From Spirochaetales bacterium (GTDB lineage Bacteria; Spirochaetota; Spirochaetia; DTKZ01), in the NCBI GenBank assembly GCA_031280945.1, contig JAITGB010000182.1, forward strand, positions 1 through 34,914: a stretch of 34,914 bases of DNA. The letters run 5' to 3'. Of this stretch, positions 1,380-34,914 are shown one piece after another. Within the stretch, counting starts at the first letter, position 1; the number at the start of each line of letters is the position of its first letter. Under the pieces are notes generated by a model that worked only from the letters and a program-made list of their open reading frames with translations, was not told the DNA's origin and made no database searches. The translations under genes and the position numbers were made by a program.

Positions 1380-4151
1380 TCACCCGCCAAGCCCCAGCAA
1401 AATCCCCCGCACGTCCTGGGCGCCGGGCAGCCTCCCCCCATCCAGACCCACAACGAGAAAGCTCCTCCCCCCCTCCCATACTACCGGAACAAAAAGCGGC
1501 ATATACGAAGAGGCAAACGCAGCCGAAGAGGCAAACCAGCCCGAAGTCGCAAGCTCCGCGAATTCCCGTATCTCCCGCAAAGGCTTTTTCAGGAGAATAG
1601 CATTGCCCCCTCCCTTCTGCCTCTCCTCAAAGAGGGACGGCACAGGCACAGTACGCTTCCCCCCGCCTTCAGCGCCAAGCCCCAGGGTATAGGCAATCTC
1701 ATAAACGCCCTCACGGGGCCGGAGAAGGGCAGCCGCCGGAGACAAACCAAAAGCCCGCGACACCGTAACAAGGGATTTTATAACGCCCACCCCGCCGGAG
1801 TGGAACCTTTTCAAAAAGAAATCGTACTGAAAATACCCATCCGAAGATACAAGGCTCTTATCCATAACGCTTTCTTCCGCGAAAACCTCAACCCTCTCCT
1901 CAGCCGAAACGCCCCCCATAAGGAGAAAGTCAACGCCTGAGTCCCTCCCGCCCCAAATCTCATCAATACCCGGACTCACTTCGCCAAAAACCCCATTCTC
2001 CCGCTCCCCATCCACCGTCTCCGCGGAACTCTCTCCGGCGGAAACCCGTAAAGCCCCTCCCGCTTTCTCAGCCTCCTCTTCCGCCCCCCCCAGGGGAAAA
2101 ATAACACAATTCCCCTCATCTTCGCCAAGCTCCAGAATACCCAAAACAGCCTCACCCGCGGAAGGAACAGTGCCGCTCGCCGCCATCAAGCTCGCGTAAG
2201 CGTCCCCCGAAAAAACAGCAGGCCGGAACGCCAGGTCTTCAAGAAAAGCCTCACCCGAATCTTCATCATCCCCATCAGCCGCTTCAAGAACACGGGCCGC
2301 ATCCTCAACCTCACCGGAAGCCCCCGCCTCTCCCGCCTCGTCTCTCTCACCCTCACCGTCAACAGCCGCATCAACAACTTCTACATCGTCCGCCTCACCT
2401 TCGCCGGAAGGCTCATCATCGCTATCCTCCGCTGCCGCTTCCGCGTCCTCCACGTCGTCTACATCATCCGCATCCTCGGCCTCCTCGACCTCATCCACAG
2501 CCTCCACGTCTTCTGCATCGTCCGCCTCATCTTCGCCGGAAGGCTCATCATCGCTAGCCTCATCCGCCGCTTCCGCGTCCTCCACGTCGTCTACATCATC
2601 CGCATCCTCGGCCTCCTCGGCCTCATCCACAGCCTCCACGTCTTCTGCATCGTCCGCATCATCTCCGCCGGAAGGCTCATCATCGCTAGCCTCCGCTGCC
2701 GCTTCCGCGTCCTCTCCATCGGACAACTCTTCAAGAGACTCAAGCTCCTCAGCATCGCCAATCTCCTCCACGTCCTCCGCCTCATCAGAGAAAGCATCAA
2801 GGCTCACCTGAGCCAAAGACGCGGCAGGAAGCCCATCATCCCCCGGCCTCGCGCGGGAAAGCCTCGCCGGAGAAGAGGCCAGCTTTTTCCCCCCGCCCAA
2901 AGCCTGCATATTCGCAAGAGCCTTCTCGATAAGAGCCTCAATCTTTCCCAAATCAGGAGAGACCCTCTTCTCCTCCCGCCGCGAAACAAGAACCGCAATA
3001 ATCTCATCCCAGCTCTTGTCAACAAGAGCATCGAACTTCTCCACCTCCGCCTTTTTAAGCCGGAGGCCCCGCTTTAACTCAGAACGAACATCATCGCGCC
3101 TTACTTCAAGCTCCGACTGCCATTTACTCCAGTCAATCTCCTCTTTGCGCTCAAGATACTCCCGCAGAAGATTCATCTGGAACTTCTTAATCCTCTCAAA
3201 AAGAACAACCGAAGAATCCTGCCTGATACTCAAAACAAGAAAAACAACAAGAAAAGCCGTAAAAAAAACAGACGAAAGGAGAATCCCCTTCATAACAGGA
3301 TTAAGAACAAACTCATCGTCCGCCGCAAAAATCCCAATACGCGAAAAATCACCCAAAACCCTGTCAAAAAAAATGTAACGCCGCCCCTCACCCTGAAACG
3401 AAGGCCGCGCCTGAGCAGCCCCCGCCCAGTACCCTGTAACAGCCTCCTTCACGTCCTCAGAACCGGACACGTCCGCGCGCAGGAGAATACCCAGACTCTC
3501 CACTAACGCAAGCTCCTCCCCAAGATTAATCACCCCCGCCTGCATCAAATGCCGCTCAAGACCATCAAGGGACACATAAAAAAGCCCGTACCCCGCAAAA
3601 GCGTCATACCCGCCCGTTATCCTAAAACCGTACACACACGCATTATCCTCAGGGCTCAAAACCACAAAAGGGCTCTTCTCAGAGCGGGCAATCTGGGCAA
3701 TAAAATCCGCAGCCTCAACATCGGAAAAAAAACTATACTCAATCGAACGGCTTGTAGTATTACGCACATCGCTTGCAAGCGAACTATAGTGAATCTCACG
3801 CAGACCTGAGTCCACGAAACGGATAAACATCAGCGAAGGCACGTCCTCCTCCAGCTTCCCGAAGGCCCGCGTCCTCGCAAGAATATCCTCTCTCCTCTGG
3901 TTACGCAGGAAAATCGACTTAATCCACTCCCCGCGCACCGCCGCCCCGTAGCGCTCAAGATTCAGGGCATGGAACCTCCCAATCTCCGAGGCAGCCCTCG
4001 CAAGCGACCGGTTAATATCCCCCGCCACCTTCCTGTTGTAAAAAGTGCTCTCAATATAATTGAACATACCCGAAAACGCGGCAATCGAAAAAACGCAAAA
4101 AATCACCACAGCCGCGAGAAGGCTTAAAGACAATTTTTGGGCAGTTCTCAT
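1380..4151 (-). CDS. large membrane-anchored hypothetical protein with acidic D/E/A-rich tandem-repeat linker
   Basis: 923-aa ORF with an ATG at 4149-4151 and AAGGAG upstream. The N-terminal TM segment (LSLSLLAAVVIFCVFSIAAFSG) and a second TM segment (ILLSSVFFTAFLVVFLVLSI) bracket a domain of about 270 aa. A coiled-coil-like K/E/R segment follows, then about 200 aa of D/E/A repeats, then a C-terminal globular part. I recognise no family. Confidence 0.8.
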   Translation of the reverse strand: MRTAQKLSLSLLAAVVIFCVFSIAAFSGMFNYIESTFYNRKVAGDINRSLARAASEIGRFHALNLERYGAAVRGEWIKSIFLRNQRREDILARTRAFGKLEEDVPSLMFIRFVDSGLREIHYSSLASDVRNTTSRSIEYSFFSDVEAADFIAQIARSEKSPFVVLSPEDNACVYGFRITGGYDAFAGYGLFYVSLDGLERHLMQAGVINLGEELALVESLGILLRADVSGSEDVKEAVTGYWAGAAQARPSFQGEGRRYIFFDRVLGDFSRIGIFAADDEFVLNPVMKGILLSSVFFTAFLVVFLVLSIRQDSSVVLFERIKKFQMNLLREYLERKEEIDWSKWQSELEVRRDDVRSELKRGLRLKKAEVEKFDALVDKSWDEIIAVLVSRREEKRVSPDLGKIEALIEKALANMQALGGGKKLASSPARLSRARPGDDGLPAASLAQVSLDAFSDEAEDVEEIGDAEELESLEELSDGEDAEAAAEASDDEPSGGDDADDAEDVEAVDEAEEAEDADDVDDVEDAEAADEASDDEPSGEDEADDAEDVEAVDEVEEAEDADDVDDVEDAEAAAEDSDDEPSGEGEADDVEVVDAAVDGEGERDEAGEAGASGEVEDAARVLEAADGDDEDSGEAFLEDLAFRPAVFSGDAYASLMAASGTVPSAGEAVLGILELGEDEGNCVIFPLGGAEEEAEKAGGALRVSAGESSAETVDGERENGVFGEVSPGIDEIWGGRDSGVDFLLMGGVSAEERVEVFAEESVMDKSLVSSDGYFQYDFFLKRFHSGGVGVIKSLVTVSRAFGLSPAAALLRPREGVYEIAYTLGLGAEGGGKRTVPVPSLFEERQKGGGNAILLKKPLREIREFAELATSGWFASSAAFASSYMPLFVPVVWEGGRSFLVVGLDGGRLPGAQDVRGILLGLGG
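2384..2714. repeat. 132-bp (44-codon) in-frame tandem repeat, about 2.5 copies, inside the 923-aa CDS
   Basis: Units start at 2384, 2516 and 2648 (catcgtccgc...), an exact 132-nt period with few substitutions. They encode ...DDEPSG(G/E)D(D/E)ADDAEDVEAVDE(A/V)EEAEDADDVDDVEDAEAA.... Confidence 0.9.
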
Positions 4152-4255: not shown

Positions 4256-4362
4256 GGGCGCATTTTTTGCGCTTTGCGCAAAAAACCGGGCTATCCGCTC
4301 CAATTCCTCAAAAATTGCCTTGCGGCAATTTTCTGCGGGATTTCCGCTTCTATCCCTTGCGC
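4256..4362 (+). repeat. structured intergenic repeat, copy 1 (short subfamily)
   Basis: GGGCGCA, then hairpin TTTTTTGCGC-TTT-GCGCAAAAAA, then CCGGGCTATCCGCTCCAATTCC, then hairpin AAAATTGCC-TTGC-GGCAATTTT, then GGATTTCCGCTTCTATCC and CTTGCGC. The same block order occurs in four other copies. Confidence 0.9.
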
Positions 4363-6975: not shown

Positions 6976-7347
6976 TTAAACAGCCTTCTTCTTTCCAGCA
7001 ACAGTCTTCTTCTTGCCCTTGCGCGTACGTGCGTTTGTCCGCGTTCTTTGCCCCCGTACAGGCAGCCCCCGCCTATGGCGCAGGCCGCGGTAACATCCAA
7101 TGTCCATAAGACGCTTTATGTTCAGGGAGACCTCCGTCCTCAGGCGGCCCTCCACCTTGTACTCGTTTTCAATAACGGTGCGCAGCTCGTTGATTTCCTC
7201 GCCCGTTAAATCGTTCGCCCTCTTGTAGGGGTCAATCTTTGTTGTCTCGCAAATCTTGCGGGCCGCCGAACGGCCAATTCCGAAAATATACGTCAGCGCA
7301 ATATCCAAATGCTTGTTTGGAAGGTCAACGCCAGCAATACGCGCCAT
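6976..7347 (-). CDS. rpsM: 30S ribosomal protein S13
   Basis: [27 protein letters not shown]...; AGGAGG SD. Confidence 0.98.
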
Positions 7348-7356
7348 GAAATCCTC

Positions 7357-7470
7357 CTACCTCTGTCTCTGCTTGTGCTTGGGATTGATGCACACAATCC
7401 GCAAAACGCCGCGCCGTTTGATAATTTTACACTTATCACAAATCGGTTTCACACTTACCCGTACTTTCAT
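7357..7470 (-). CDS. rpmJ: 50S ribosomal protein L36
   Basis: Not in the track because it is under 60 aa. My translation is [37 protein letters not shown], with the canonical L36 CxxC..C..H zinc motif. It lies between secY and rpsM. Confidence 0.95.
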
Positions 7471-19096: not shown

Positions 19097-19136
19097 TTTA
19101 CTGCCTCCTTACCCTGCAGACAAATAATCTTCCAAA

Positions 19137-19166
19137 CTTATATAGCAATGAACCCCGCCTTTTCAA
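19137..19166 (-). promoter_or_regulatory. candidate promoter proximal to tuf
   Basis: Minus strand: TTGAAA (19166-19161), a 16-18 nt spacer, then TATATAAG (19144-19137), about 40 nt upstream of the tuf ATG. A second candidate lies near 19455-19485: TTGACG, a 17-nt spacer, then TAGTAT. Confidence 0.4.
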
Positions 19167-19593
19167 AAAAACGCGGAAAGCTCACTAAAAACCATCCGTA
19201 ATGCCCGTGGGAAGCAGCAAAACCTAAAGCCTCCCGGCAGGGAAACCCCGCCAGCGCCCGCAGTCAAAACCGCCTCTAAAAATGGAGGAAGGAAGAACAA
19301 CGCGCGCCCGCACAGGCACACGCAAGGTCATAGGGAACGCCCCAGAGGACCTGTTCAACATCCTTACCGTCAACACCGCTCCCGGAATAACACGGAAAAG
19401 CCACGCCCCCCGGTTTCACGGAAACCCACTACTTAAAGCCGCCGAAACAGCTAGAAGGATGATTAGTCAGCCAATACTATCGAAAAATCAAAAACACGTC
19501 AATAGCAAAACAGCGAATTTTTGATTTTTTTCACCTTTTATCGCCCGCGGCCAAACCAAACCAAGTCAAGCCGCGCTATGCCGCCAGGCGCTT

Positions 19594-20556: not shown

Positions 20557-20709
20557 GGGCGCATTTTTTACGGCCTGCGGCCGTAAAAAACCGGGCTATC
20601 CGCTCCAATCCAGCGGATTTTGCAAAGCAAAATCCGCAAGGATTTCCGCTTCTATCCAGGCTGCATGGACGAGCAGCAATCCGTAAGGATTGCGACCAGT
20701 CCCTTGCGC
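20557..20709 (+). repeat. structured intergenic repeat, copy 2 (long subfamily with extra hairpin module)
   Basis: GGGCGCA, then TTTTTTACGGCC-TGC-GGCCGTAAAAAA, then CCGGGCTATCCGCTCCAATCC, then GCGGATTTTGC-AAA-GCAAAATCCGC, then GGATTTCCGCTTCTATCC. An insert follows that contains GCAATCC-GTAA-GGATTGC, and then CTTGCGC. Confidence 0.9.
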
Positions 20710-20717
20710 GGCGACAC

Positions 20718-20749
20718 GGCTTCCCCGAACGGGGAAGCCACGTCTTTTT
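20718..20749 (+). terminator. terminator-like hairpin on the plus strand, 9 nt after repeat copy 2
   Basis: GGCTTCCCC-GAAC-GGGGAAGCC followed by ACGTCTTTTTC. There is no plus-strand CDS upstream that it could terminate. Confidence 0.55.
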
Positions 20750-20884
20750 CATTTACACGCTAGCCCGAAAGCCGTATACTAGTCTTATATATGAAGATTC
20801 CCGCGAAAGCCAGCCGGAAAACCGCCTGTTTACAATCTTCTTCCGGTTTTTTCAAAGAATTTTCACATAATTTTCAAAAAACGC

Positions 20885-20913
20885 TTGCCAAAAAGAAAGA
20901 ATTTATATATAAT
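20885..20913 (+). promoter_or_regulatory. promoter of the Fur-family regulator / rubrerythrin module
   Basis: TTGCCA (20885-20890), exactly 17 nt, then a perfect TATAAT (20908-20913), 38 nt before the ATG. Confidence 0.65.
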
Positions 20914-20932
20914 AGTAATAGTTATTATTATT
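20911..20932. promoter_or_regulatory. AT-rich palindromic operator candidate (Fur/PerR-box-like)
   Basis: AATAGTAATA-GT-TATTATTATT, with 9 of 10 positions complementary. It overlaps the -10 hexamer and the expected +1, and runs into an (ATT)4 tract. Confidence 0.5.
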
Positions 20933-20951
20933 ATTTTGAGGAAAAGAGAAG

Positions 20952-21344
20952 ATGATGCCAGGAAAGAAGCACAGTAAAAAACGGGACGCAATCCTGCGGG
21001 CCATACAATCAACCCAGCTTCATCCGGGAGCCCAGTGGGTGTACGACACCCTCAAGCCTGAGATTCCCGGCCTGTCCCTGGGCACCGTGTACCGGAACAT
21101 CAGCCTTTTCCTGAAAGAAGGAGAAGTGGTGTCGGTCGGAGTTGTTGGCGGCGAGGAGAGGTTTGACGGCCGCGTTGAGCCCCACCCCCACGCGGTGTGC
21201 CTCCGGTGCGGCAGCGTTACGGATATTCCCGGCATAGATGACGCGGCGCGGAACCTTCTCGCACACGGCGGGGCCCCCAAGGGCTTTCGCATCGATTACA
21301 CAAAGACTGTTTTCTATGGTCTTTGCGGAGCCTGCTCCTCATGA
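20952..21344 (+). CDS. Fur-family transcriptional regulator (PerR-like, by context)
   Basis: 130 aa. The winged-helix part is RDAILRAIQSTQLHPGAQWVYDTLKPEIPGLSLGTVYRNISLFLKEG. HPHAVCLRCG ... GLCGACS gives the CxxC..CxxC structural Zn site typical of Fur/PerR/Zur. It is adjacent to rubrerythrin. Confidence 0.85.
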   Translation: MMPGKKHSKKRDAILRAIQSTQLHPGAQWVYDTLKPEIPGLSLGTVYRNISLFLKEGEVVSVGVVGGEERFDGRVEPHPHAVCLRCGSVTDIPGIDDAARNLLAHGGAPKGFRIDYTKTVFYGLCGACSS

Positions 21345-21412
21345 GAAAGGCCCCCTGCATTAGGTAATTCCCGCGGCCCTGCCGCGGATATAATTTTTTT
21401 GGAGGTATCGTT

Positions 21413-21955
21413 ATGAAAAAATGGGTTTGTTCAGTCTGCGGCTATGTTCACACCGGAGACAAAGCGCCGGACGCTTGTCCGCAGTGCAAAGCCCCCGCGG
21501 CCAAGTTCAAGGAACAGGTAGCCGGAGAAACTTTTGCGGCGGAACACGTTGTCGGCGTTGCAAAGGATGTGGAAAACGACATCAAGAGCGACCTGCAGGC
21601 TCACTTTAACGGTGAGTGCTGCGAAGTGGGCATGTACCTGGCCATGAGCCGTGTCGCCGAGCGCGAGGGTTATCCCGAAGTTGCGGAAGCCTACAAGCGC
21701 TACGCTTTTGAGGAAGCCGAACACGCCGCGAAATTCGCGGAGCTTTTGGGCGAGGTAATTACCGCCAGCACAAAGAAGAACCTGGAACTGCGCATTGAGG
21801 CTGAACACGGCGCCTGTGCGGGAAAAACCGACATCGCCAAGCGCGCCAAAGAAAAAGGCTACGACGCCATTCACGACACCGTGCATGAAATGGCCCGTGA
21901 CGAAGCCCGGCACTGCTCGGGATTCAAAGGTCTTTTGAAAAGGTATTTCGCCTGA
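21413..21955 (+). CDS. rbr: reverse rubrerythrin (N-terminal rubredoxin-like Cys4 domain, C-terminal diiron four-helix bundle)
   Basis: [15 protein letters not shown] lies at the N-terminus. The diiron ligand motifs follow: [31 protein letters not shown]. Confidence 0.9.
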
Positions 21956-22007
21956 AAGTCAGACTATTTTTTTGAAAGTAAAAAAGTTTTTGTTGTAAAA
22001 AAGTGAG

Positions 22008-22046
22008 AAAAAAGCGCGGGGCCCTGTTTGGGCCCCGCGTGAATTT
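22008..22046. terminator. bidirectional intrinsic terminator shared by rbr (+) and rpoC (-)
   Basis: CGCGGGGCCC-TGTTT-GGGCCCCGCG (10-bp GC stem, 22015-22039). An A-run on its left gives CTTTTTTCTC on the minus strand, and T-rich TGAATTTGTTTTC lies on its right. Confidence 0.8.
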
Positions 22047-22088
22047 GTTTTCGCTTTATGCGTACTGTAATGGTTTCTGTCCGCCCGT

Positions 22089-22209
22089 GGGGCGCAAGGG
22101 ATAGAAGCGGAAATCCCGCAGAAATCGCCGCAGGCGATTTTGAGGAATTGGAGCGGATAGCCCGGCCCTGTCCTTTTTCGCCGGGGCGGAAAAGGGCGGG
22201 GGTGCGCAC
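22089..22209 (-). repeat. structured intergenic repeat, copy 3 (short subfamily), between the rpoC stop and its terminator
   Basis: The reverse complement reads GTGCGCA, CCTTTTCCGCC-CC-GGCGAAAAAGG, CCGGGCTATCCGCTCCAATTCC, AAATCGCC-TGC-GGCGATTT, GGATTTCCGCTTCTATCC, CTTGCGCCCC. Confidence 0.9.
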
Positions 22210-33620: not shown

Positions 33621-33665
33621 GAGCACAAATTCCGGGGGATACAGGGCCAGCTCATATAAACTTTT

Positions 33666-33770
33666 GGGGCGCATTTTTTGCCGCTGTACGGCAAAAAACC
33701 GGGCTATCCGCTCCAATTCCTCGGAATTGCTCCGCAATTCCTGCGGGATTTCCGCTTCTATCCCTTGCGC
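33666..33770 (+). repeat. structured intergenic repeat, copy 4 (short subfamily)
   Basis: GGGGCGCA, then TTTTTTGCCG-CTGTA-CGGCAAAAAA, then CCGGGCTATCCGCTCCAATTCC, then GGAATTGC-TCC-GCAATTCC, then GGATTTCCGCTTCTATCC and CTTGCGC. Confidence 0.9.
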
Positions 33771-33950
33771 GGACGGGGGCTCCGCCCCTGAACCCCCGCC
33801 GGGAGGCCGAAAGGCCCCCCCAGACCCCCACAAAAAGTTTATATGCGCTCGCCCTGTTGCCTCATGAAAAATGTTACCGAAAAAGGCGAATGCCTCAAAT
33901 AGAAAATGTTACCCAAATTAAAGTAAGGACGCCTGAAGGAGGGAGTCCTG

Positions 33951-34652
33951 ATGGGGTTAACAATGAGAGAAAAACAGGCGGTAACAAGGGAATATAAGCC
34001 CCGTTACCAAAAAGCGACAAAAAAAGAAAAGGGGGCTTTGCTTGAGGAATTCCTCAGGCTCACCGGCTGCCACCGCAAATCAGCGGTCAGGCTGCTTGCC
34101 GCCAGGCAGCCAAAACAGCTCATGCTCTACGGGAAGGGCAGGGCAGTGAAAATCAAGCCCGAAAAAAAGCGGTCCTCAAACCGTAAGGGTAAGCGGGTCT
34201 ACACCGATGAGCTCATAGGCTGCCCGCGTCTAGCCTGGACATTCTTCTGGTACAAATGGACTTTCCAGGCCTTATCGGACCTGAAAACTTCCTGCCTCCT
34301 GCCCATACGGGAGTTTCACAGCGATAACGGCTCGCGGTTCATCAACAACGCCACAGAAATCTGGCGCAAACACGAACGCCTGTCTTTTACCCGCAGCCGT
34401 GACCATAAAAAGAATGACAACCTTAACTTCTTCATGCCTATCCAAAAGCTCACAAGCAAAACAAGAGTCGGCTCCAAAGAAATCAAAGTCTATGACAAGC
34501 CGCGCGGTCCCTTCCAACGGCTCAGTGAGTCGCGGGAAATGTCCCAAAAGTTCAAAGACGCACTCGCCACTCATTGCGCACTTTACAATCGGGTCCACTA
34601 TAAACATTTCTATTTGAGGCATCTCGCAAAACGCAAAAATGCCCAGGGATAG
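33951..34652 (+). pseudogene. relic of an integrase-core (rve/DDE) transposase, apparently internally deleted but still an open 233-codon frame
   Basis: It has an N-terminal HTH-like LLEEFLRLTGCHRKSAVRLL and a single rve-like REFHSDNGSRFINNA block. It is only 233 aa, and I see no upstream catalytic Asp region or downstream Glu block. GGAGGGAG SD before the ATG. Confidence 0.6.
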
Positions 34653-34747: not shown

Positions 34748-34914
34748 GGGGCGCAAGGGTTTTGCTCCGATTTTATCGGTTCGCTGAAGCGAACCGCAGT
34801 GTCGCAAAACCAGTGGATAGAAGCGGAAATCCTTGCGGATTTTGCGAAGCAAAATCCGCTGGATTGGAGCGGATAGCCCGGTTTTTTGCCTTGCGGATTT
34901 TGCGGAGCAAAATC
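34748..34914 (-). repeat. structured intergenic repeat, copy 5 (long subfamily), 5' part cut by window end
   Basis: The reverse complement reads ...GCAAAATCCGCAAGGCAAAAAA, CCGGGCTATCCGCTCCAATCC, GCGGATTTTGC-TTC-GCAAAATCCGC, GGATTTCCGCTTCTATCC. An insert follows with GGTTTTGC...GGTTCGC-TTCA-GCGAACC...GCAAAACC, and then CTTGCGCCCC. Confidence 0.85.

Follow-up and report, generated by a model that had tools for sequence, protein, structure and literature searches.

One hairpin-rich element recurs five times (c1 to c5) between the genes of a Spirochaetales bacterium, in 34,914 nt of DNA from contig JAITGB010000182.1. This stretch, hereafter the window, is the complete 34.9-kb contig of a metagenome-assembled genome (MAG), and the question that the locus raises is whether the element is a gene for a small RNA (sRNA) or a repeat acting as DNA. 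All five copies are members of Flavo-1 (Rfam family RF01705), which is catalogued as an sRNA. We consider it somewhat more probable, at roughly 55%, that Flavo-1 is a non-autonomous structured DNA repeat, resembling repetitive extragenic palindromic (REP) sequences, bacterial interspersed mosaic elements (BIMEs) and miniature inverted-repeat transposable elements (MITEs), than that it is a dedicated sRNA gene.

Identity of the repeated element

An earlier note, made from the sequence alone, had placed the five copies and described their shared order as GGGCGCA, hairpin P2, CCGG-GCTATCCGCTCCAAT, hairpin P3, GGATTTCCGCTTCTATCC, an optional extra hairpin and CTTGCGC. Direct reading confirmed the positions (Table 1), this order and the P2 and P3 stem sequences, as well as the division into short (c1, c3 and c4) and long (c2 and c5) forms, the latter carrying inserts of 45 nt (c2) and 57 nt (c5). 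Copies c3 and c5 are inverted relative to c2 and c4, respectively, and P2 of c3 is an irregular hairpin with bulges. Block A (GCTATCCGCTCCAAT, 15 nt) has five perfect matches in the window and one further match with three mismatches within rpoC, while 1.0 match at up to three mismatches is expected by chance and none of 100 shuffles reached six. Block B (GGATTTCCGCTTCTATCC, 18 nt) occurs exactly five times versus 0.08 expected, and a search of the window with a covariance model of the full element returned the five copies and no sixth. Since P3 measures 33 nt in c1 and 28 nt in c4, the conservation of the blocks is not that of a reading frame, as the note had also held. Copy c5 is incomplete because the assembly, and with it the whole contig, broke inside the repeat.

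Table 1. Copies of the Flavo-1 element and associated features in the window (for c1 to c5, the strand is the Flavo-1 strand)
Feature	Position	Strand	Form and parts	Flavo-1 (bits)	Model R1 (bits)	Placement
c1	4256-4362	-	Complete short unit; in + strand numbering, P1 5' half 4256-4262, P2 4263-4285, CCGG 4286-4289, block A 4290-4304, P3 4305-4337, block B 4338-4355, P1 3' half 4356-4362	37.3	90.6	Between the L17 terminator (4428-4409, -) and the promoter-like site of a 923-aa open reading frame (4224-4196, -)
c2	20557-20709	-	Long unit; P2 20564-20590, block A 20595-20609, P3 20610-20639, block B 20640-20657, extra arm X 20658-20702 (AGGCTGCATGGACGAGCAG-hairpin-CGACCAGTCC), P1 3' half 20703-20709	49.5		Upstream of the rpsL promoter-like site (20522-20494, -), at 34 nt from its -35 hexamer
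c3	22089-22209	+	Short unit; P2 long and irregular	35.1	72	Between the rpoC stop (22234, -) and a bidirectional terminator (22014-22040), in the predicted rpoC 3' untranslated region
c4	33666-33770	-	Short unit	33.7	90.8	Upstream of the tRNA-Thr promoter-like site (33620-33592, -)
c5	34748-34914	+	Long unit, truncated at the contig end; P1 3' half with CCC 34748-34757, extra hairpin arm (57 nt) 34758-34814, block B 34815-34832, block A 34863-34877, P3-like hairpin 34889-34914 at the expected place of P2	40.3		Downstream of a decayed transposase reading frame
Composite enclosing c4	33642-33856	none	215 nt; outer inverted repeats CAGGGCCAGCTCATATAAACTTTT ... AAAAGTTTATATGCGCTCGCCCTG (24-36 nt), G+C-rich spacer			
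Terminator-like hairpin	20718-20739	+	T tail to ~20749			After c2 in + strand numbering
PerR/Fur-family gene and rubrerythrin gene	20952-21955	+	20952-21344 and 21413-21955			Bracketed by the inverted copies c2 and c3
Decayed insertion sequence	33857-34640	+	rve/DDE transposase reading frame 33951-34652			Between c4 and c5

In the Rfam scan of the window, c2 was recognized as Flavo-1 RNA above the gathering score of 42 bits, and at a permissive threshold the other four copies matched the same family at 33.7-40.3 bits (E-values of 2e-5 to 1.3e-3), below the cut-off. All of these matches lie on the strand opposite to the one in which the earlier note had oriented the element. That note could place the element in no known family and held that a match to one would end its novelty; with the Rfam match, the claim of novelty therefore falls. 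Elsewhere, most of 20 scanned loci with the same two blocks scored 49-76 bits. The Flavo-1 arm reads GGGAUAGAAGCGGAAAUCC ... GAUUGGAGCGGAUAGCCC with a variable tip, which is both blocks and P3 read on the opposite strand. The two blocks thus face each other as an imperfect helix, as had been proposed, and form the base of the Flavo-1 hairpin with the pairs GGG/CCC, UA/UA, GC/GC and AAUC/GAUU, between which lie the purine-rich internal loops A x G, GAA x GGA and GGA x GGA. In the cmscan alignments, the internal-loop sequences GAUnGnAGCGGAnAnCC are present on both sides of the hairpin base. The low scores of c1, c3 and c4 (34-37 bits) are due to an extra conserved segment at the base of P3 (TCCTCA ... 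CTGCG in the orientation of the note, CCGCAG.../...UGAGGA on the Flavo-1 strand), and the window copies belong to a GCGCAAGGGAUAG... subtype found in spirochaetes and some Bacteroidota.

Flavo-1 was first described in 2010 as a candidate sRNA from Bacteroidetes and Spirochaetes (Weinberg et al., PMC2864571). The alignment of that study already holds the 5' flank GCGUKAGGGAU (GCGYNAGGGAU) and a copy from Treponema denticola, and its supplement gives the range as Bacteroidetes plus some Spirochaetes (PMC2864571). The window, with its Spirochaetales host, multiple copies and diverse gene contexts, agrees with this description. Rfam types the family as 'Gene; sRNA', the literature has assigned it no function since 2010, and by annotated instances it is among the most abundant Rfam 'sRNA' families (PMC9029176). 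A literature search with the block sequences gave no relevant match. The main result is therefore deflationary, in that the family was already catalogued and its host phylum already known. The element shares with RF01705 the conserved hairpin base, the variable tip, the spirochaete host and the 5' flank; it differs in that the Rfam model spans the arm alone, whereas the unit found here joins the arm to P1, P2 and an optional X arm in a three- or four-way junction with support from covariation. What is added to the Rfam model is modest, namely this junction extension, the modularity of the unit and a DNA-type loop bias.

Structure and covariation of the full unit

The full unit of about 100 nt is a three-way junction which is conserved across genomes beyond the arm. 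It consists of a 5-bp closing stem P1 (GCGCA/UGCGC), the sequence-free hairpin P2 and the long Flavo-1 arm, and is laid out on the Flavo-1 strand as 5'-GCGCA-A-(arm: GGGAUAGAAGCGGAAAUCC-P3-GAUUGGAGCGGAUAGCCC)-GG-(P2)-UGCGC-CC. The base of the arm is a near-invariant, pseudo-symmetric helix with the loops GAA/GGA, GGA/GGA and A/G, while its tip P3 is free in both sequence and length. The long unit c2 would form a four-way junction, in which the extra arm X (AGGCUG-CAUGGRCGAG-hairpin-CGAC-CAGYC) is the fourth arm.

Covariance model R1, with 100 positions and 31 pairs, collected 84 copies in 70 sequences. In this alignment 92.1% of the paired cells hold complementary bases versus 73.0% after shuffling (0 of 500 shuffles as high) and 35-46% when the partners were slid, though the 84 copies were fitted to R1, which favours the structure. 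Changes on both sides were observed in 28 of the 31 pairs, including all five of P1, versus a shuffle mean of 17.9 (0 of 500 reached 28), and the covariation score was 0.417 versus 0.122 in the control. Pairing reaches 86-100% in helices 2-4, and in P3 each of the 11 pairs varies on both sides. The earlier observation that the stems vary and yet stay complementary is thus borne out, in the window and across other genomes. Its suggestion that the complementary ends form a closing stem holds for the core of 5 bp (GCGCA/TGCGC), which covaries, but not for the outer G/C residues, which are present in some copies only. The variants of P1 include GCGCA/UGCGC, GCACA/UGUGC, GCGCC/GGCGC, GCGUG/CACGC, GCGCG/CGCGC and GCGGC/GCCGC, at times within one genome. 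Folding of single sequences gave stable structures on either strand (z of -3.0 to -3.9), in which P1, P2 and the P3 tip were recovered and the loop-rich arm was not always recovered.

P2, with its T6-stem-A6 arrangement, was also considered as an intrinsic terminator. The T run precedes the stem on both strands, which is the wrong polarity, and P2 is therefore not a terminator of this kind; the terminator-like sites of the window lie outside the elements.

Distribution, flanks and modular composition

The exact two-block pattern was found at no fewer than 61 loci when 185,579 reference genomes were scanned. Among the matches listed, the hosts are termite-gut Treponema and other spirochaete MAGs, several Leptospira species and Marispirochaeta, together with the Bacteroidota Ferruginibacter, Flavobacterium and Ilyomonas; many of the copies listed stand at contig ends, as c5 does. 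One MAG holds many near-identical copies, and copy density varies from five in the 35 kb of the window to one in 54 kb elsewhere. A blastn search of a plasmid collection with c1 gave no match. Model R1 did match two Bacteroides conjugative plasmids, pBF9343 (locus L074, 722-798) and p5482 (locus L075, 4645-4726); the copy in pBF9343 directly follows a recombinase-family gene and precedes a gene for an ArdC-like protein binding single-stranded DNA (ssDNA), and such plasmid copies could bear on horizontal spread or on a role involving ssDNA. Only one degenerate copy was found in 2.9 million viral contigs; the element is therefore not one carried by phages.

No orientation bias relative to genes was observed. 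In tandem-gene contexts 14 copies are sense and 18 antisense, which agrees with the transcriptome of Flavobacterium psychrophilum, where Flavo-1 matches are sense or antisense and many are untranscribed. The flanks of 65 copies are conserved on one side only (AAATTC, 3' of the Flavo-1 strand), without target-site duplication, and no conserved promoter or terminator was found flanking the copies. An all-against-all BLAST of 272 neighbouring open reading frames (ORFs) gave ordinary housekeeping clusters only, with no recurrent neighbour family.

The unit is built from modules which are combined in several ways. In other genomes, the X arm of c2 stands 5' or 3' of the Flavo-1 arm or in the place of P2, a tail module CCCACGGGCU(C)UUUGCGCUUCGCGC recurs, and an alternative 3' end is common to two copies of one MAG (L037 and L042). 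The composite enclosing c4 has a counterpart of 89% identity in a different genomic context of another MAG (L033, 6275-6490), and the only wholesale difference is the apical part of P3, which is wholly replaced. This suggests an exchange or rapid turnover of hairpin tips. Hairpin tips have also been inverted: in five cases, a stem recurs with its loop reverse-complemented.

Two other recurrent sequences were also noted. A recurrent promoter-like module of 21 nt (CTTAACTTGTTGACAGTGGGA) lies beside Flavo-1 units in L013, L027, L033, L057 and L062, on either side and pointing away from them. A different hairpin-rich repeat (GACTTGTTCGATAA..., AGTTGTTCAGAAAC/GTTTCTGAACAACT) is present in two MAGs (L007, 5000-5130; L020, 1570-1690), and in L007 it splits a RayT-like gene.

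Folded DNA or RNA

Both readings offered by the earlier note, a structured RNA family and a REP- or MITE-like element of ssDNA hairpins, remain live options. The loops of the hairpins bear on the choice. The 84 copies contain 127 distinct perfect hairpins, of which 71 end in triloops and few in GNRA tetraloops; the c-GNA-g triloop was counted 36 times on the Flavo-1 strand and 7 times on the other (p ~9e-6). GNA triloops closed by C-G are known to form extraordinarily stable DNA mini-hairpins with melting temperatures of 70-76 °C, while the RNA versions are much weaker, and they mark ssDNA initiation signals and the ssDNA promoters of phage N4 (PMC13037366). The strand bias of these triloops, the flipped loops and the one-sided conserved flank without target-site duplication hint that the active form is DNA. 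That the element is a repeat at all is suggested by the dispersal of the copies over unrelated contexts, their uneven abundance, mosaics and frequent position at contig ends, the lack of orientation bias and of conserved transcription signals, and the filled rpoC-rpsL junction of the window.

As a structured DNA repeat, the element would multiply and recombine at the DNA level, insert between genes in both orientations and combine with other hairpin modules into mosaics. In P1, P2 and P3 helix formation alone would be required, and the invariant unpaired bases would serve as the surface by which a trans-acting protein recognizes the Flavo-1 strand in its folded form, probably that of single-stranded or extruded DNA. 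Mobility would be the cause of the dispersal, the active form would be folded DNA and not RNA, and a partner protein would act on it; these three steps we infer. A fuller version, in which Flavo-1 units are cross-phylum mobile elements acting as folded ssDNA, a GNA-capped three-way junction mobilized in trans, whose inverted pairs seed rearrangements such as the capture of the PerR and rubrerythrin genes between rpoC and rpsL, is offered tentatively and is clearly the less probable of the two.

Several results weigh against a mobile DNA repeat. No clean pair of filled and empty sites was obtained at strain level, and no syntenic pairs occur among the loci compared. G.U wobbles number 31 and A.C mismatches 21 in the 84-copy alignment (two register-artefact columns removed), which is not significant; a first pass had been positive, partly as an artefact of alignment register, and wobble asymmetry was rejected as a means of picking the strand. 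The base of P3 also holds a conserved C.A, which on the opposite strand would read as a wobble pair. In Leptospira, unannotated transcripts matching Flavo-1 have been reported, and an RNA motif would explain the purine-rich internal loops just as well. MITE and REP families do not usually keep 33 nt identical across two phyla, and such identity would be no less expected of a strongly selected RNA or a conserved host machine. The orientation counts rest on crude ORF calling in G+C-rich DNA, in which the neighbouring genes of c1 were miscalled. To these is added the outcome of the partner search, in which no transposase or recombinase partner was found.

A Y1 transposase of the REP-associated tyrosine transposase (RAYT) type, which the earlier note had put forward, was not found in the expected arrangement. 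Y1_Tnp-like (RayT-like) genes with a degenerate HUH motif lie near two copies (L037, 291-755; L007, 4800-5362). In MAGs of termite-gut spirochaetes this family, represented also in loci L070-L073, numbers 1,800 or more distinct sequences, with the HUH motif replaced, e.g., by LSFYIRP, and because it is so hugely expanded the proximity to two copies is not significant. Five RayT-like genes in 54 kb are not flanked by the element, the single copy there lying 1.6 kb off with a gene between, and a metagenome scan with the RayT-like gene alignment gave no match. The RAYT partner was accordingly rejected.

The rve/DDE transposase of the decayed insertion sequence (IS) between c4 and c5 was likewise rejected as the parent of the element, as intact relatives carry terminal repeats of their own (48-50 nt) and no Flavo-1. 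Its ORF encodes a shortened protein of 233 aa versus 404-408 aa in intact relatives, and a homologue is encoded in 0 of 68 other loci. The IS retains remnants of its own 48-nt terminal repeats (AAAATGTTACCGAA...ATGCCTCAAATAGAAAATGTTACCCAA), with the left end abutting the outer inverted repeat of the c4 composite, beside which it simply landed.

The strongest alternative is that Flavo-1 units are independently functioning small structured RNAs, in which the junction and the G.A-rich loops bind a conserved protein or RNA partner and the copies are paralogous genes or sponge-like decoys. It would account for the strong covariation in every helix, the purine-rich internal loops that are invariant on one strand only, lower folding energies on the Flavo-1 strand and the sequence identity across phyla, besides the Leptospira transcripts; the terminator-like hairpin after c2 could also be cited, though it is on the strand opposite Flavo-1. 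However, the copies lack a conserved flanking promoter or terminator, are oriented at random relative to neighbouring genes and, in F. psychrophilum, are often untranscribed or antisense, and their hairpins end in GNA triloops, not in tetraloops of the GNRA or UNCG type that are typical of RNA hairpins under selection. Copy number also varies widely between related genomes, and copies occur at contig ends, in mosaics and nested in other palindromes. We therefore regard an sRNA gene as unlikely.

A role in cis as RNA, by which the element would block exonucleases, guide processing or insulate transcription units as REPs in mRNA do, is improbable. Copy c3 lies in the predicted 3' untranslated region of rpoC before a terminator, c5 is downstream of an ORF, and the folds are very stable on either strand (z of -3 to -4). 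However, c1, c2 and c4 are upstream of promoter-like sites, and c1 also follows a terminator, which places these three outside the predicted transcripts. Furthermore, 33 invariant unpaired or mismatched bases would be needless in a simple stabilizing hairpin, and no preference for orientation is seen.

Equally low is the probability we give to a double-stranded or cruciform DNA site, BIME-like, for a host protein such as a nucleoid protein, gyrase or a regulator, which might, for example, absorb negative supercoils upstream of strong promoters. Consistent with such a site, c1, c2 and c4 are oriented alike and end 31-45 nt upstream of the -35 hexamers of promoter-like sites, the two blocks make up a direct repeat GGATnGnAGCGGAnAnCC, and ORF contexts place 11 copies between divergent genes versus 3 between convergent genes. 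Yet when 65 copies were compared, gene starts (33) and gene ends (29) were about equally frequent on the 3' side of the Flavo-1 strand, the strand-specific loop bias is not expected of duplex DNA, and no candidate protein is known. Finally, chance similarity or an assembly artefact, for which the sole point is that the window is a MAG contig, is hardly credible, given that the five exact copies are far above the shuffle expectation and that the element is present in dozens of independent assemblies, including Leptospira isolate genomes.

Comparison with known repeat systems

As a DNA repeat, Flavo-1 resembles the REP, BIME and REPIN elements mobilized by RAYT (Y1 HUH) transposases in being high-copy intergenic palindromes, found in both orientations, in mosaics and in inverted pairs, which apparently act as folded single strands without target-site duplication. 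However, REPs are simple hairpins of 20-40 nt with a conserved 5' GTAG, whereas the Flavo-1 unit is a junction of about 100 nt with 33 invariant bases and no GTAG head, and REP families are not conserved across phyla as the Flavo-1 sequence is. Nor is any of the five RayT-like genes flanked by the element, which does not match the definition of a REP or REPIN with its RAYT.

The MITEs Correia/NEMIS, ERIC and BOX are alike in their size of 100-150 nt, stable structure, location beside promoters or terminators and lineage-variable copy number, and BOX of Streptococcus pneumoniae (modular A-B-C) is also alike in modularity. Flavo-1 differs from MITEs in having only the 5-7 nt of P1 instead of long terminal inverted repeats, no duplication and no parent IS with matching ends. 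A MITE of a DDE-type IS was rejected in particular, since the flanks of the 65 copies show no duplication and the repeats of the adjacent IS are unrelated.

A third likeness is to sites recognized as folded ssDNA, i.e., integron attC sites, the ends of IS200/IS605 elements and palindrome-associated transposable elements (PATEs), plasmid ssi/sso sites and the hairpin promoters of phage N4. These share with Flavo-1 a helical base with unpaired or extrahelical bases, a sequence-free tip, strand specificity and GNA mini-hairpin loops. The one-sided conserved flank without duplication resembles target choice by IS200/IS605 and fits a PATE; no TnpA partner was found, and no gene-orientation bias is seen. 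Unlike these sites, Flavo-1 has no attC R/L box consensus, cassette arrays or adjacent integrase or TnpA gene, and it shows no orientation bias suggesting a link to replication direction. The attC candidate was rejected because the R''/L'' and L'/R' boxes (RYYYAAC / GTTRRRY) are absent and the gene-bracketing copies are inverted, not direct; no integrase gene was seen among the annotated ORFs of the window.

If Flavo-1 is a DNA repeat and not an RNA gene, hundreds of 'sRNA gene' annotations in Bacteroidota and Spirochaetota would be misleading, and a new mobilization system that recognizes ssDNA might await discovery. In practical terms, the element breaks metagenome assemblies, as at the end of the window contig, and marks rearrangement points beside core operons.

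The rpoC-rpsL junction and other features of the window

In the window, the junction between rpoC and rpsL spans about 1.8 kb and consists of c3, a terminator, the rubrerythrin gene, the PerR-like gene, a terminator and c2. In relatives whose ribosomal protein S12 is 94% identical (four contigs, two of which duplicate the others), rpoC is followed by 83 nt and then the rpsL promoter, and an R1 search of the 14-kb syntenic stretches of these relatives (two loci) found 0 Flavo-1 copies. The PerR and rubrerythrin pair looks like an oxidative-stress cassette inserted at a core operon junction. As the relatives are only ~77% identical in DNA, the comparison makes an argument about the ancestral state and not a clean empty site. 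Within 20710-22090, the PerR-like and rubrerythrin genes each have their own terminator-like hairpin and lie on the strand opposite rpoC and rpsL.

Other features of the window were also recorded. The ORFs at 1380-4151 (-; 923 aa) and 390-1331 (+; 313 aa) have no Pfam or NCBIfam match. A gap of ~500 nt separates rpsG (S7) from tuf (19097-19593), with no fusA between, and a similar gap of ~400 nt is present in the relatives L063 and L066. At the start of the S13/S11/S4/rpoA/L17 block, positions 7315-7404 (-) show a sub-threshold match to the alpha-operon ribosome-binding site (RF00140; 30.3 bits versus a gathering score of 38), which is plausibly a real ribosomal protein leader.

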